A stretch of 64,000 bases of DNA. Source: a virus. Lineage: Duplodnaviria > Caudoviricetes. The translations under genes and the position numbers were made by a program. The notes under the pieces are model-generated. The model was not told the origin of the DNA. It worked only from the letters and a program-made list of their open reading frames with translations, and did no database searches. The stretch covers positions 6,544 through 70,543 of the IMG/VR virus record IMGVR_UViG_3300031867_000041; one strand, 5' to 3'. This document shows positions 9,274-54,082 of this stretch, one piece after another. Numbering within the stretch: the first letter of the stretch is position 1; each line of letters opens with the position of its first letter.

Positions 9274-9337
9274 AGCTGACGAGAAGAATCGAACTCACAA
9301 CCTAAATCAGTTGCGCTACCAACTGCGCCACATCAGC
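9274..9337 (-). pseudogene. tRNA-like gene lacking the anticodon loop and 3' anticodon strand (Thr-like body)
   Basis: GCTGATG..GTCAGC acceptor stem, GCGC-AGTTGGTA-GCGC D arm and TTCGATT T loop are intact. Only ACTGATTT remains of the anticodon arm. Confidence 0.65.
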
Positions 9338-9979: not shown

Positions 9980-10295
9980 CTCCCCGACTGGGACTCGAAC
10001 CCAGACATACCTGCTTCAAAGGCATATAACGGTTTTCCTACTACTCCATGTCACCATAGCCGACTTTCGTCGTTGTAGTCTGGACTATTTCTTCACCATA
10101 TGACATAATCACTTAGGTGTCCCCTATATAGTCTCTGTACATTTACGAAATAATCAATTTCGATTTAGCTCCTCGTTGTCTCAATATTATATTGAGAGTT
10201 TCGCGAATTAGGGGGAATTCACAATGAGACTTTCGTTCCCATGTGTCCAAATTAAGGCTGAGAGACCGGCGCGATACCAATTTCGCCATCGGGGA
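9980..10295 (-). tRNA. Intron-containing tRNA, predicted mature anticodon CUA (amber suppressor), long variable arm
   Basis: Acceptor TCCCCGA/TCGGGGA with G73; D arm GCG-AAATTGGTAT-CGC; T arm CTGGG-TTCGAGT-CCCAG. Joining exons at U|...G gives the 7-nt loop CU-CUA-AA. Confidence 0.8.
10037..10260 (-). mobile_element. Group I intron (224 nt) between anticodon positions 35 and 36
   Basis: P7 motifs CAGAGACTA and AAATAGTCC, P9 with CGAC-GAAA-GTCG tetraloop, IGS TTTGGACAC, terminal G. Confidence 0.85.
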
Positions 10296-24053: not shown

Positions 24054-24111
24054 TGAGCCGTCTGGGAATGTGTGTTCCCACTGATGAGTTCCAAAAGGAC
24101 GAAACGGCTCA
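24054..24111 (+). ncRNA. Hammerhead ribozyme (type III topology)
   Basis: TGAGCCGTC cleavage triplet; stem I TGGGAA/TTCCCA; CTGATGA core; stem II GTTC/GGAC; GAAA; stem III closed by CGGCTCA. Confidence 0.9.
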
Positions 24112-50349: not shown

Positions 50350-50463
50350 CGGAACATAGCTCAATTGGTAGAGCACTCATGACAAACTATTGTTAACAGT
50401 GTCTTTGTTAACAGATAACCAATAGTGAAATGGGAAATGCACGTTCGAGTCGTGCTGTTCCAT
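50350..50463 (+). ncRNA. tRNA-like RNA with a 49-nt structured anticodon loop
   Basis: GCTC-AATTGGTA-GAGC D arm; CTCAT/ATGGG stem enclosing nested hairpins; GCACG-TTCGAGT-CGTGC T arm. Confidence 0.65.
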
Positions 50464-51395: not shown

Positions 51396-51404
51396 CTTCG
51401 AGGG

Positions 51405-51590
51405 AGGCTCATATCCTCTGTGCGAACATATAGTAACCATTAAAATCGCCGTAGGTTCGCACTGGTATTACCGATGGAAAGGCATTTGATTTTAGACAAA
51501 TCTCATTCCTATCGCCGTCGGAACTGTACATTGACACGTAATTGCATAACGGGAAGATGCAGATACATATTTGTTTTGTGCATATTTGCT
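51405..51590 (+). promoter_or_regulatory. Leader/tracr-like element A
   Basis: CTGTGCGAAC...GTTCGCACTGG inverted repeat; anti-repeat ATCTCATTCC at 51500-51509; ends TTTGCT at repeat 1. Confidence 0.7.
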
Positions 51591-51739
51591 GATGTAATTT
51601 GCGGATGTGTATAGAATGAGATGTAAACTAAAATCTGATGGACTGTTAACATACCCGATGTAATTCACGGATGTGTATGGAATGAGATTGGGGTAGCTAT
51701 CAGAGTATTCGTGAGGCTACAGATGTAATTCGCAGATGC
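51591..51739 (+). CRISPR. CRISPR mini-array A (2 full repeats plus 1 truncated, 2 spacers)
   Basis: 32-nt GATGTAATTYRCGGATGTGTATRGAATGAGAT at 51591 and 51657, partial at 51722; spacers 34 and 33 nt. Confidence 0.75.
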
Positions 51740-51761
51740 ACACAAAACAGAAAGGAATTAT

Positions 51762-53171
51762 ATGCAGTATACCAAAGTTACAAATTATTCATTAAAATGT
51801 AGGCTTTACCCGAATAAGACTCAGCAGAAAAAAATTGATGATATTCTATATGGATTAAGAGTTGCATATAATACGACAGCCTGGGAAATTGTCCACGGAA
51901 ATGAAAGTATTTGTGTGCCGGGTAAAAAAAATCAATCGGATTTCTATCCAGATTTTAATAAGATGTACAAAGCGGATTGGCTAGAACAATTAAGAAAGAC
52001 TCATGAGATTGTAAATGCTGTACCTCCAAACGCTCTTTCCGGTACAAACGGAATTATGTTAAACAACCTTAAAAAGTCATATGAGAATTTTCATCCAGAT
52101 ACGAATGTTCAAGCAAAAACAAGAACCGGCAAACTAAAATTTACAAAATCTGGCAAACCAGTAATGAAGAAAACCGATAAACCAGTAAAGGTTTCGTGTG
52201 ATAAATGGCAACCGACGTATTATTCAAATAAACACCCAAAGAGGTCTTTCTTTATACAGGTGGAAGCAAATCGGTTTAGTTTTCCAGAAAATTCGAAATC
52301 TGTTAAAGTTGATTTAACAAAAAATAAAGGAAATAGCTCAATGAAAGATTTTGGAGCTATGAAAATTCGTGGATGGAGATTTGATTTATTATATGGAGAT
52401 GATCAGAAATCAACATTTACAGACTGTTTTGATGATAGAAAATTAAGTGTATTTATTTCTAAAGATAATGTAGGTGATTATTATATTTCCGTGAGAATCC
52501 CGGAAGTTTGGATACCTGTAAAAGACACCAAAGAACAAAGGGAACTTGGTGTAGATGTTGGCGTTCATGATGTCGCCATAACTTCGGACGGAACTAAATA
52601 TGAGAATAAGAAATTTCTCGAAAAAGAAATTCAACATAAAAAAGCATTGAATAGACGTGTGAGCAGAAGACAAGGTTGGTCAAATATTAAATTTAGAGAA
52701 GCTCACAAAGAAAACAATGACTTGATGCCGTCGAAGAGATACGAGGAAACGAAATTAAAGTTGGCAAAACTTGATCGGAAAATTGCTAGGAGGCGAGATG
52801 ATTATAACCATTGTGTAACAAGAGATATTGTTAACAAAGCATCATTTATTGGAATTGAGTCTCTTGCTGTGAAAGATATGTTGCAAGATAAGTATATGGC
52901 CAGGGCGTTAAGTGATGCGGCTATGTACGATATATTATCAAAATTGAAATACAAAATGAATCGTAAGGGTGGGGAGATTGTTTCAATTGGCAAATGGGAG
53001 CCGTCCAGTCAGTTGTGTCATGTTTGCGGATATCAAAACAAACTAATTAAAGATACAAGAATAAGAGACTGGACATGTCCGAAATGTGGAACATATCATG
53101 ACAGAGATATAAACGCTGCCATTAATATATTAAATATGGCAAAAGCAAAACAAGAAGAAAAAACAATATAA
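51762..53171 (+). CDS. TnpB/Cas12f-like RNA-guided RuvC nuclease (469 aa), CRISPR-associated
   Basis: N-terminal LKCRLYPNKTQ; RuvC-I GVDVG, RuvC-II IGIESL, Zn finger CHVC/CPKC, RuvC-III HDRDINAA; no tnpA nearby; flanked by arrays. Confidence 0.9.
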   Translation: MQYTKVTNYSLKCRLYPNKTQQKKIDDILYGLRVAYNTTAWEIVHGNESICVPGKKNQSDFYPDFNKMYKADWLEQLRKTHEIVNAVPPNALSGTNGIMLNNLKKSYENFHPDTNVQAKTRTGKLKFTKSGKPVMKKTDKPVKVSCDKWQPTYYSNKHPKRSFFIQVEANRFSFPENSKSVKVDLTKNKGNSSMKDFGAMKIRGWRFDLLYGDDQKSTFTDCFDDRKLSVFISKDNVGDYYISVRIPEVWIPVKDTKEQRELGVDVGVHDVAITSDGTKYENKKFLEKEIQHKKALNRRVSRRQGWSNIKFREAHKENNDLMPSKRYEETKLKLAKLDRKIARRRDDYNHCVTRDIVNKASFIGIESLAVKDMLQDKYMARALSDAAMYDILSKLKYKMNRKGGEIVSIGKWEPSSQLCHVCGYQNKLIKDTRIRDWTCPKCGTYHDRDINAAINILNMAKAKQEEKTI

Positions 53172-53184
53172 TAAATTAAATCGT

Positions 53185-53373
53185 GTGAGGCTCAGATACA
53201 CTGTGCGAACTTGCAGTAATCATAAATTATCTGATAGGTTCGCACTGGCATTGGCCGTAATTAAAATGATTTTCATATCTTTAATGCAAATCATTATTGT
53301 TACGGATCACCATACGGGGTACATTTTGCTGATGTGGTAAGGAAATCTCAATCCATTTTTGTGTATTTTTGCT
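53185..53373 (+). promoter_or_regulatory. Leader/tracr-like element B
   Basis: Same inverted repeat (53201, 53238); anti-repeat TCTCAATCCAT at 53346-53356; ends TTTGCT. Confidence 0.7.
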
Positions 53374-53669
53374 GACGCAATACGTACGAGCGTATGGACT
53401 GAGAGATCCAGTAAAATCAAGGATTCCGAGATTTCGAGGACGTAATACGTACGAGCGTATGGACTGAGAGTGGTGTTGACCCTTGATATAACCGGTCCAT
53501 TATGACGTAATGCGTACGAGCGTATGGACTGAGAGGTTCGAGAAATTTCGAGGGTTTTCGAGGAGTGAAAGACGCAATACGTAAGAGCGTATGGACTGAG
53601 AGATATAGTGATATCCGTACAGTTACAAATGTCGCTTGACGCAATACGTACGAGCGTATGGACTGAGAG
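53374..53669 (+). CRISPR. CRISPR array B (5 repeats, 4 spacers)
   Basis: 32-nt GACGCAATACGTACGAGCGTATGGACTGAGAG at 53374, 53439, 53504, 53571, 53638; spacers 33, 33, 35, 35 nt. Confidence 0.95.
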
Positions 53670-53727
53670 GTATATGGTAGCAAAAGACGAGTTCTATAAG
53701 AATATATAATTAAACAAAATATGTTGG

Positions 53728-53917
53728 CGTGAGACTCAACCACGCTGTGCGAAGTATAAGCTAACACATATTTGCAAGTATGTTCGCACTGGCATTGACC
53801 GTAATTTAAATGGTTGCTGTATTTGACAATAACCATTATTGTTGCGGTAGTCATATATAATGTATGTATATTGCTCAATTCGCGGTTGAAATACGGAAAT
53901 ATTTATGTAGTTTTGCT
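53728..53917 (+). promoter_or_regulatory. Leader/tracr-like element C
   Basis: Same inverted repeat (53745, 53782), strongly similar to leader B; anti-repeat CTCAATTCGC at 53874-53883; ends TTTGCT. Confidence 0.7.
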
Positions 53918-54082
53918 GAATCGATATACACATGTATGTGAATTGAGATCCATATTCCGAGGTAGGAGAGTATGATACATCTACGAATCAATATACACAT
54001 GTATGTGAATTGAGATAATTCTATTCGCTTTCTTTTTCCCCCCGTAAGCCGAATCAATATACACACGTATGTGAATTGAAGT
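53918..54082 (+). CRISPR. CRISPR mini-array C (3 repeats, 2 spacers)
   Basis: 32-nt GAATCAATATACACATGTATGTGAATTGAGAT at 53918, 53985, 54051; spacers 35 and 34 nt. Confidence 0.9.

Follow-up and report, generated by a model that had tools for sequence, protein, structure and literature searches.

Three guide-RNA cassettes (A, B and C) surround one TranC-type nuclease gene in the 64-kb window, the whole stretch of DNA analysed here, which comes from a large gut phage. The explanation that best covers the whole locus, with a probability of roughly 0.6, is that these are TranC guide cassettes whose leaders double as type I-C CRISPR leaders and would be loaded by a type I-C system of the host. In each cassette a ~190-nt 'leader' precedes a mini CRISPR array, and the nuclease ORF sits between arrays A and B with cassettes on both sides of the gene (Table 1). 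The arrays are short, with 2–4 spacers each, and regular, unique 33–35-nt spacers alternating with 32-nt repeats at a period of 65–67 nt. The last repeat of array A is degenerate and overlaps into the ribosome site of the nuclease gene, and the repeat of array C at 54051–54082 is degenerate at its 3' end. All three leaders contain the palindrome GTGCGAA..TTCGCAC (GTGCGAAC/GTGCGAAG ... GTTCGCAC), which extends from 171 to 129 nt upstream of repeat 1 in each, and in all three TTTGCT directly abuts repeat 1. An initial annotation of this DNA had noted the palindrome (at ~130–170 nt), the TTTGCT junction and the 32-nt repeats, and all of them are found in each cassette. The 87-nt leader core forms a three-copy repeat family in the window, and the locus is flanked by tRNA genes and small ORFs. 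A scan for sigma-70 promoters gave no score above shuffles, and no Rfam family matches the repeats or leaders; a genuine I-C repeat also falls below threshold.

Table 1. Coordinates of the nuclease gene and of the elements of its three cassettes, numbered from the first letter of the window.
Feature	Position	Strand	Details
Cassette A, stem 1 hairpin	51400..51418	+	loop CTCAT (51408-51412) complementary to repeat nt 26-30 (ATGAG)
Cassette A, I-C-type leader element = putative scaffold stem 2	51417..51464	+	palindrome GTGCGAAC..GTTCGCAC; R1 38.9 bits, E 1.6e-7; aligned with I-C leaders
Cassette A, anti-repeat (partner of repeat 5' half)	51537..51548	+	RNAduplex -10.5 kcal/mol; family-wide cognate vs non-cognate test
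Array A	51591..51753	+	repeats 51591-51622, 51657-51688, 51722-51753; spacers 51623-51656, 51689-51721
TranC-type nuclease P0001, 469 aa	51762..53171	+	RuvC D265/E366/D449 and CxxC..CxxC zinc ribbon conserved
Cassette B, stem 1 hairpin	53183..53201	+	loop CTCAG (53191-53195) complementary to repeat nt 26-30 (CTGAG)
Cassette B, I-C-type leader element / putative stem 2	53200..53247	+	R1 37.9 bits, E 2.8e-7
Cassette B, anti-repeat, weak (4+4 bp)	53318..53330	+	
Array B	53374..53669	+	5 repeats of 32 nt: 53374, 53439, 53504, 53571, 53638; 4 spacers, 33-35 nt
Cassette C, stem 1 hairpin	53727..53745	+	loop CTCAA (53735-53739) complementary to repeat nt 26-30 (TTGAG)
Cassette C, I-C-type leader element / putative stem 2	53744..53791	+	R1 37.1 bits, E 4.5e-7
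Cassette C, anti-repeat	53859..53882	+	RNAduplex -10.3 kcal/mol
Array C	53918..54082	+	repeats 53918-53949, 53985-54016, 54051-54082; spacers 35 and 34 nt

Judged by its sequence, P0001 is a TnpB-derived, LaTranC-like TranC nuclease. It contains the Pfam domains OrfB_IS605 and Cas12f1-like_TNB, its best solved relative is LaTranC (PDB 9jfo; E 7.3e-77 over residues 5–467), and across 26 homologues neither the RuvC D/E/D residues nor the zinc-ribbon cysteines vary. Cassettes with the same leader and 32-nt repeats adjoin the homologue genes (43–77% identity) in other phage-like contigs, and the same cassette type lies beside a more distant homologue (35% identity) in a MAG contig; the linkage of cassette and nuclease is kept in every relative examined. 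Viral contigs searched with the nuclease protein gave no match and 201 genomes of the order Lachnospirales no close homologue, while a protein-profile search of genome contigs was dominated by generic TnpB, with L051 as the only true relative. Scanning viral contigs for the palindrome pattern returned chance matches only, in GC-rich contigs; megablast and blastn of the locus and arrays against the phage collection gave no match for arrays A, B and C or for those of L046 and L007.

Read as RNA, the leader is above all a putative tracrRNA/omegaRNA-like scaffold, in which a pseudoknot-forming hairpin (stem 1), the palindrome and the anti-repeat follow one another. This reading stems from the complementarity between the stem-1 loop and repeat nt 26–30, together with its covariation. 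The match is an exact 5/5 Watson–Crick in 14 of 16 cognate cassettes, one of the remaining two being paired via G-U and the other at 4/5, whereas 1 of 228 non-cognate loop–repeat pairs matches. Twelve different 5-mers take part in this covariation, and none of 20000 permutations gave a count as high as that observed. Within the window the variable loop base is T, G and A in cassettes A, B and C, with A, C and T at the corresponding repeat position, and for cassette A the long-range pairing is also recovered in the MFE fold. Across the family, the anti-repeat duplex averages -12.2 kcal/mol for cognate and -9.1 kcal/mol for non-cognate combinations (0/5000 permutations as extreme); within the window cognate pairing is no better than non-cognate and that of cassette B is weak. 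Because the anti-repeat energies lack cognate specificity there, the idea that the three window cassettes are orthogonal was dropped.

A further pairing, a hairpin at repeat positions 7–12/17–22 with compensatory changes, had been put forward in the initial annotation. The positions do pair (5/6 in A, 6/6 in B and 6/6 in C, counting G-T), but the compensatory changes carry little weight: over 16 related cassettes 68/96 positions pair in register, and shifting the 3' arm by 2 still leaves 66/96 and 60/96, as purine/pyrimidine alternation lets the segment pair in any even register. The argument from compensatory changes in this hairpin was therefore rejected as evidence. The earlier suggestion that the arrays feed the phage's own nuclease fares far better, given the LaTranC-like protein and the covarying scaffold–repeat pairing, and we are confident that the cassettes serve this nuclease. 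Interference by it is a well-supported prediction; the cassettes are presumably transcribed and their RNAs processed, with putative transcript ends.

Read as DNA, the leaders are very probably true homologues of type I-C leaders. We built a covariance model (R1) from 14 genuine I-C leaders only, all adjoining cas1c-cas2. In the window it matches exactly three sites, which are leaders A, B and C (37–39 bits, E ~1e-7), the next, unrelated match having an E of 0.37. It also matches all 12 array-bearing cassettes of the relatives, while the single-repeat unit L010 does not reach a match at E<=1. On 0.8 Mb around 79 generic TnpB genes R1 gave 0 matches, and on five whole genomes one match each, the I-C leader. 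Of the 25 matches inspected in 151 fresh Bacillota genomes, 20 lie 167–183 nt upstream of a GATTGAAAY-type array, where the repeats end in GATTGAAAY or a one-base variant and are mostly GTCGC..GTGGATTGAAAY; one other inspected match precedes an array with an unrelated repeat. These Bacillota matches have cas2 just upstream in 17 cases, 16 of which have cas1c too.

The comparison with real I-C loci extends to position and junction. In verified loci (cas3-cas5c-cas8c-cas7-cas4-cas1c-cas2) the palindrome sits right behind cas2 and starts 169–172 nt upstream of repeat 1, and the 171 nt of the window compare with 167–172 nt in most Bacillota I-C loci. The window and I-C elements align without gaps, with GCGA..T.C.C invariant, and the last 20 nt of the window leader, TTTGTG-N6-TTGCT^G (^ marks the leader–repeat boundary), match Firmicute I-C leaders. 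The window leaders have their junction in common with B. halodurans I-C, where it reads GATTTTCGCT^GTCGC (PMC6519985), and with I-C leaders of the order Lachnospirales. I-C leaders are known to carry subtype-specific motifs 100–200 bp upstream, and integration is affected by the distance of these motifs from the repeat (10.1101/2023.05.26.542337). Real I-C loci bear out the I-C features given in the initial annotation: their 32–33-nt repeats end in GTGGATTGAAAT/C, and their leaders contain this palindrome together with a ..TTGCT^G junction. The assignment of the window leaders and repeats to the I-C kind, made in the same annotation, agrees with R1, with these loci and with the shared spacing and junction. 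This repeat end, however, is only partly present in the window: its repeats are 15–18/32 identical to the I-C repeat GTCGC..GTGGATTGAAAY (z 3.7–4.5 against shuffles), with just 8–10/12 at the 3' end, where the relative L048 has 12/12.

No cas1, cas2 or cas4 is found in the 70.5-kb record, and cas3-cas5c-cas8c-cas7-cas4-cas1c-cas2 is absent beside the arrays. As the record represents only ~41% of the genome, the remainder could still encode adaptation genes. Given the I-C-type leader, the repeat and spacer lengths and a record without these genes, new spacers would most likely be inserted by host I-C Cas1-Cas2-Cas4, and loading by these proteins in the present day is plausible, at odds slightly better than even. 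In L011 and L046 the leader-proximal repeats are identical (six of them in L011) and the distal ones diverged, which fits insertion at the leader end; L046 also contains a duplicated repeat–spacer unit, and related cassettes have wholly different spacers. No spacer turnover was seen, identical contigs and cassettes recurring across different samples. No cas1c is seen in the one bacterial MAG that contains a related cassette, though MAGs often lose such loci.

Searches of the phage collection, viral contigs and metagenome contigs found no protospacer for any window spacer, including exact scans with five of them (three in viral contigs, two in metagenome contigs). Conversely, 190 I-C spacers from the fetched I-C loci had only chance matches of 13–20 nt to the phage and its relatives. 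The L011 array partially matches (29–31/35 nt) a gene that is conserved in Latilactobacillus phages and in satellites of Streptococcus; since the flanks differ between the matches, this was not taken as a protospacer and no PAM was drawn from it. In published work, LaTranC was assayed with a 5'-TTC PAM (10.1101/2025.09.28.678669), OsTranC3 gave TTC in bacterial depletion (10.64898/2026.03.27.714800), and the cutting site of I-C Cas4-Cas1-Cas2 is GAA, which is complementary to TTC (PMC6519985).

A mechanism can be proposed on this basis. In the helper RNA, the stem-1 loop would form a 5-bp pseudoknot with repeat nt 26–30, two bases ahead of the spacer, the palindrome would form stem 2, and a long stem 3 followed by the anti-repeat on the 5' half of the repeat would complete the scaffold. 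This scaffold would hold the repeat-plus-spacer RNAs while the nuclease cuts matching DNA, most likely that of rival mobile elements. As DNA, the same leader would act as a type I-C CRISPR leader, the counterpart of the element behind cas2 in genuine loci, and host I-C Cas1-Cas2-Cas4 would select TTC-flanked DNA, TTC being the PAM reported for LaTranC and OsTranC3; the I-C integrase is assumed to tolerate the drifted window repeats. For the phage itself we infer cleavage, the PAM and adaptation in trans. A bolder version is less likely than not. Here the 42-nt element would be bifunctional, docking the host I-C integrase as DNA, at whole helical turns from repeat 1, and folding into stem 2 as RNA. 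The whole TranC clade would descend from a fusion between a TnpB guide RNA and an I-C leader and array that had been captured, and would live parasitically on the I-C adaptation of its hosts. Some relatives, L048 among them, could then load host I-C crRNAs into the phage nuclease, as their loop TTCAA can pair with the I-C handle TTGAA in its unaltered form.

The likeness to I-C could also reflect ancestry only. The TranC clade would then have arisen once, when a TnpB gene with its guide RNA acquired an I-C leader and array by capture; its role as stem 2 would be the sole reason for keeping the palindrome, and phage arrays would be static or change by recombination or unit duplication, with no host loading. 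Because the palindrome lies within the putative tracrRNA, RNA-level selection alone could conserve it, and the duplicated L046 unit, the identical arrays in different samples, the 2–4 spacers per array, the drift of the repeats from the I-C consensus and the MAG without cas1c all fit. We nevertheless consider this account the less likely one. The leader–repeat junction and the 32-nt repeat length have been retained too, and for neither is an RNA role obvious. Palindrome-to-repeat distances fall into classes of 149/160/171/182, about one DNA turn apart, suggesting a DNA-level constraint, although the classes were set after viewing the data and the cassettes are related. The entirely different spacers of related cassettes and the six identical leader-proximal repeats of L011 also speak against ancestry alone, and the sole broken palindrome arm occurs in the single-repeat L010.

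Use of host effectors, which the initial annotation had raised in the form of Cas5d/Cascade, is improbable. Host Cas5c would process the arrays and host I-C Cascade-Cas3 would be loaded, the nuclease gene being incidental; the I-C-like repeat length and leader and the central hairpin in arrays B and C would suit this, yet in every relative examined the cassettes accompany the nuclease gene. Moreover, the 3' handle, the part that Cascade keeps, matches the I-C consensus at only 8–10/12; it varies from array to array (A, B and C), and its changes track those of the helper-RNA loop. Virus-borne mini-arrays that have no cas genes of their own and draw on the Cas proteins of the host were reportedly described by Faure and by Medvedeva in 2019. 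Like the phage arrays they are short and viral, with host-CRISPR-type repeats and probably aimed at rival elements, whereas the phage has its own effector and helper RNA and would borrow adaptation at most. Least probable is an ordinary IS200/IS605 TnpB element with an omegaRNA, its 'arrays' being decayed transposon ends: TnpB-type domains are present and L010 with its single repeat is omegaRNA-like, but the record contains no TnpA and a single copy of the nuclease gene, the cassettes flank that gene on both sides with 65–67-nt periodicity and unique spacers, and the leader element is absent at generic TnpB loci.

The three-cassette system, with its I-C-type leaders, has close parallels. TranC is described as a transposon–CRISPR intermediate (LaTranC, PDB 9jfo/9jfp/9jfq; Jin et al., Cell 2025, via PMC13565253, 10.1101/2025.09.28.678669 and 10.64898/2026.03.27.714800). 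As far as the accessible text of these sources goes, it shares with the phage system a compact TnpB-like RuvC nuclease of ~470 aa, a gene-adjacent array unaccompanied by adaptation genes, ~32-nt repeats in short arrays, and a guide composed of a tracrRNA-like scaffold (stems 1–3) and crRNA, the phage RNAs being predicted by covariation; TranC is also found in phages and gut Clostridia. The same accessible text leaves I-C unmentioned and calls the arrays 'unknown subtype'. The phage differs in having three cassettes per gene, each with its own repeat variant and matching scaffold loop, and a scaffold containing the I-C leader element at I-C spacing. I-C arrays (e.g. B. halodurans, PMC6519985) resemble those of the phage in their 32-nt repeat with a G..GC 5' end and a ..GGAnTGAnA. 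3' end, 33–35-nt spacers, the 42-nt palindromic leader element ~170 nt upstream and the T-rich ..TTGCT^G junction. In contrast, the phage arrays have no adjacent cas3, cas5c, cas8c, cas7, cas4, cas1 or cas2, their leader has an extra 5' hairpin, long stem 3 and anti-repeat, and the repeat 3' handle has diverged. The Cas12r-CRISPR of Thermus Lalka phages is likewise a compact type V system that is carried by phages and lacks adaptation genes. In repeat length, spacer length and PAM it is similar to host I-E, and its authors propose in-trans host adaptation (10.64898/2026.04.20.719267). It differs in its nuclease lineage, in having no tracrRNA and in resembling host type I-E rather than I-C, and leader-element homology is not reported for it (10.64898/2026.04.20.719267).

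Compact type V/TranC systems are without adaptation genes, and this locus gives a testable answer to the question of how they gain spacers. The 12 naturally covarying loop/repeat 5-mers also constitute a variant set for the design of non-cross-reacting guide scaffolds. The helper-RNA gene would double as an I-C leader, in which the element itself, its spacing, the junction and the repeat length of I-C are all retained, and the published TranC PAMs match the I-C PAM. This suggests that the clade may have originated when an I-C array was joined to a TnpB guide RNA.

The source record, a 70.5-kb IMG/VR virus with an estimated completeness of 41%, contains three leader-array units (cassettes A, B, and C) on the + strand, downstream of a tRNA cluster. 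In each, a conserved leader of ~190 nt precedes a mini array whose 32-nt repeats are separated by 33–35-nt spacers. The final repeat is degenerate in arrays A and C, consistent with leader-to-array polarity on this strand. In array A this repeat extends into the nuclease gene's ribosome-binding site, and the array and gene may therefore share a transcript. TTTCGAG motifs are repeated in both spacers B1 and B3, as though both targeted a sequence reiterated within a single element (iterons?). The window also holds many tRNA genes, two odd tRNA-like matches, and two Rfam matches above threshold.

Coordinates of features in the window and in related or compared contigs
Feature	Sequence	Position	Strand	Remark
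tRNA-like match	window	9274-9337
Group I intron	window	10058-10270		Rfam
Type III hammerhead ribozyme	window	24055-24110		Rfam
tRNA-like match	window	50350-50463
Array A	window		+	3 repeats; upstream of the 469-aa ORF
Last repeat of array A, up to ribosome-binding site	window	51722-51761
469-aa ORF (P0001)	window	51762-53171
Array B	window		+	5 repeats; downstream of the ORF
Spacer B1	window	53406-53438
Spacer B3	window	53536-53570
Array C	window		+	3 repeats; downstream of the ORF
Array with decayed repeats	L048	3860-4345
Single-repeat cassette	L010	4387-4660
Duplicated repeat-spacer unit	L046	4003-4132
Spacer with phage match	L011	4985-5019
Four I-C leader elements	G610 contig C3	125-136 kb

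The encoded nuclease, P0001, combines OrfB_IS605 and Cas12f1-like TNB domains. Its closest solved structure is LaTranC (9jfo; E 7.3e-77 over residues 5-467), with ISDra2 TnpB next, and the RuvC residues D265, E366, and D449 and the zinc-ribbon cysteines are unchanged across 26 homologues. The 70.5-kb record contains no TnpA and a single copy of P0001. TranC nucleases, the 'transposon-CRISPR intermediate' class, derive from TnpB and use a guide RNA split into tracrRNA and crRNA (PMC13565253; 10.64898/2026.03.27.714800). The locus belongs to this kind.

A protein search returned 1516 homologues, and contigs were retrieved for eight with 43–77% identity to P0001. Most of these loci are phage-like, with RecT, SMC-like, anti-Pycsar, and RNA ligase genes. 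Leader and 32-nt-repeat cassettes flank the gene on one or both sides in seven, the exception being L010, which has one repeat; a ninth locus (35% identity) lies on a Limiplasma MAG contig, and the set used for comparison comprised 16 cassettes. This persistent linkage, together with predicted pairing between the leader-encoded scaffold loop and the repeat, supports the initial annotation's proposal that the arrays feed the phage's own nuclease. In L010, a 50%-identical homologue is accompanied by a full scaffold and its single repeat within a tRNA cluster, an arrangement resembling an omegaRNA with one guide. In L046, spacers 1 and 2 are identical, a duplicated repeat-spacer unit.

Every leader has a hairpin at its 5' end, with a covarying stem (GTGT/ACAC, GCGTG/CACGC, GGCGGG/CCCGCC, and others) and a loop 5-mer complementary to repeat nucleotides 26-30. 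The loop/repeat pairs are CTCAT/ATGAG in A, CTCAG/CTGAG in B, and CTCAA/TTGAG in C, and those of relatives include CTCAC/GTGAG, TACTC/GAGTA, TTAGC/GCTAA, TCCAT/ATGGA, CCCAA/TTGGG, TTCAA/TTGAA, and TCTAT/ATAGA. With 12 distinct 5-mers, an exact 5/5 match occurs in 14 of 16 cognate versus 1 of 228 non-cognate pairs, and none of 20000 permutations attained the cognate count. The TnpB omegaRNA pseudoknot and the Cas12f repeat:anti-repeat-2 pairing have this same geometry. An anti-repeat ~40–60 nt upstream of repeat 1 is matched to the repeat's 5' half (mean duplex energy −12.2 kcal/mol for cognate versus −9.1 for non-cognate pairs; 0/5000 permutations that low), pairing strongly among relatives and weakly in cassette B. 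An RNA containing both partners necessarily includes the palindrome (stem 2) and the long stem 3 lying between them, in agreement with the stem1-stem2-stem3 order and 157-nt scaffold reported for the LaTranC sgRNA. Judged from these pairings, the leader is a predicted gene for a tracrRNA-like helper RNA of the phage nuclease.

The leaders were also said to mimic those of type I-C CRISPR, and this is upheld. In all three, the GTGCGAA..TTCGCAC palindrome runs from 171 to 129 nt upstream of repeat 1, with TTTGCT directly abutting the repeat. At the B. halodurans I-C locus, GATTTTCGCT stands before the leader-repeat junction and GTCGCACTCTTCATGGGTGCGTGGATTGAAAT after it (PMC6519985). Among arrays with this type of repeat end drawn from Lachnospirales-order genomes (two loci confirmed as cas3-cas5c-cas8c-cas7-cas4-cas1c-cas2), the palindrome lies immediately 3' of cas2, starting 169, 169, 170, 172, and 189 nt upstream of repeat 1, and the junction is of the ..TTGCT type with G beginning the repeat. 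Actinomycetota I-C loci, located via cas1c, carry it as CGCGAAC..GTTCGCG at 177–192 nt. Two unpublished genomes, G436 and G292, support none of the conclusions. Alignment of the phage elements with those of I-C loci is gap-free; GCGA..T.C.C is invariant, and the flanking pair changes from U-A to C-G.

A covariance model (R1) trained on 14 I-C leaders only matched exactly the three leaders in the 64-kb window (37–39 bits, E 1.6e-7 to 4.5e-7; next unrelated match, E 0.37) and 12/12 array-bearing cassettes of relatives. L010, the sole cassette with a mutated palindrome 3' arm (TTCACAC), is also the only one without a match at E<=1. Around 79 generic TnpB genes (0.8 Mb) there were zero matches, and five whole genomes gave one apiece, at the I-C leader. 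Of 151 freshly sampled Bacillota genomes, 22 had matches; 20 of 25 inspected matches lay 167–183 nt upstream of an array whose repeat ended in GATTGAAAY or differed from that end by one base (mostly GTCGC..GTGGATTGAAAY), and one preceded an array with an unrelated repeat. cas2 was just upstream in 17 of the 25, with cas1c in 16 of those. One Bacillota contig (G610 contig C3) bears four elements within 11 kb; two of these were inspected, with no array detected in the 420 nt downstream. These results mark the element as a hallmark of I-C leaders, held by the phage in three copies at I-C spacing, and by sequence the scaffold gene appears to double as a genuine I-C-type leader.

The repeats follow type I-C less closely. 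Compared with those of B. halodurans (PMC6519985), the Lachnospirales-order arrays, and the Actinomycetota loci, the claimed resemblance holds for the 32-nt length, whereas sequence is less faithful (15–18/32 identity, z 3.7–4.5; 8–10/12 at the 3' end). The repeat hairpin at positions 7-12/17-22 is present (5/6 pairs in A, 6/6 in B and C), but the argument from compensatory changes fails its control: over 16 related cassettes, in-register pairing is 68/96 versus 66/96 and 60/96 after a 2-nt arm slide, since purines and pyrimidines alternate along this segment. A possible use of the arrays by host Cascade fares poorly, as the repeat handle varies between the three arrays and shifts together with the phage scaffold loop. 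This points to selection on the handle from the phage nuclease, and use by Cascade is unlikely. In the relative L048, repeats end in a perfect I-C GTGGATTGAAAT; its array, identical in L049 and L050, has decayed repeat 5' halves and irregular 13–33-nt spacers. Since its scaffold loop TTCAA complements the unchanged I-C handle, pairing with host I-C crRNAs would be possible in principle for this clade.

How, then, would spacers be acquired? No cas1, cas2, or cas4 is present in the 70.5-kb record, which represents 41% of the estimated genome, and the remaining ~59% could hold them. I-C leaders are reported to have subtype-specific motifs 100–200 bp upstream, and the integrase is guided less by repeat sequence than by leader motifs and the distances at which they lie (10.1101/2023.05.26.542337). 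In L011 and L046, leader-proximal repeats are identical and distal ones diverged, as expected if units join at the leader end. LaTranC was assayed using a 5'-TTC PAM (10.1101/2025.09.28.678669), OsTranC3 showed TTC in bacterial depletion (10.64898/2026.03.27.714800), and for I-C Cas4-Cas1-Cas2, prespacer trimming occurs at GAA, which is complementary to TTC (PMC6519985). A parallel idea, adaptation via host I-E, was proposed for Thermus phage Cas12r (10.64898/2026.04.20.719267). Together these make it plausible that host I-C enzymes load spacers in trans, as initially proposed, and this is the best reading of the locus. Element-to-repeat distances over the 16 cassettes fall into classes of 149, 160, 169–173, and 182–183 nt, steps of ~11 nt or about one DNA turn, which is suggestive only, being noticed post hoc among related cassettes.

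A phage collection yielded no protospacer for any spacer of the window, nor did exact scans with five of them (three in viral contigs, two in metagenome contigs), and I-C spacers of the retrieved loci did not match the phage. Identical cassettes recur in different samples with no spacer turnover seen, and cas1c was not detectable in the sole MAG with a related cassette. One L011 spacer matches (29–31/35 nt) a conserved gene for a DNA-binding protein in Streptococcus satellite phages and in Latilactobacillus phages; this gene is probably homologous to the real target.

The later TranC papers covered here (including 10.64898/2026.03.27.714800) call the arrays of unknown subtype and do not mention I-C. 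Overall, the initial sequence observation is confirmed and its interpretation partly supported. What is distinctive about this phage locus is the presence of three cassettes around one gene, together with a scaffold gene that, by sequence, would double as an I-C-type leader.
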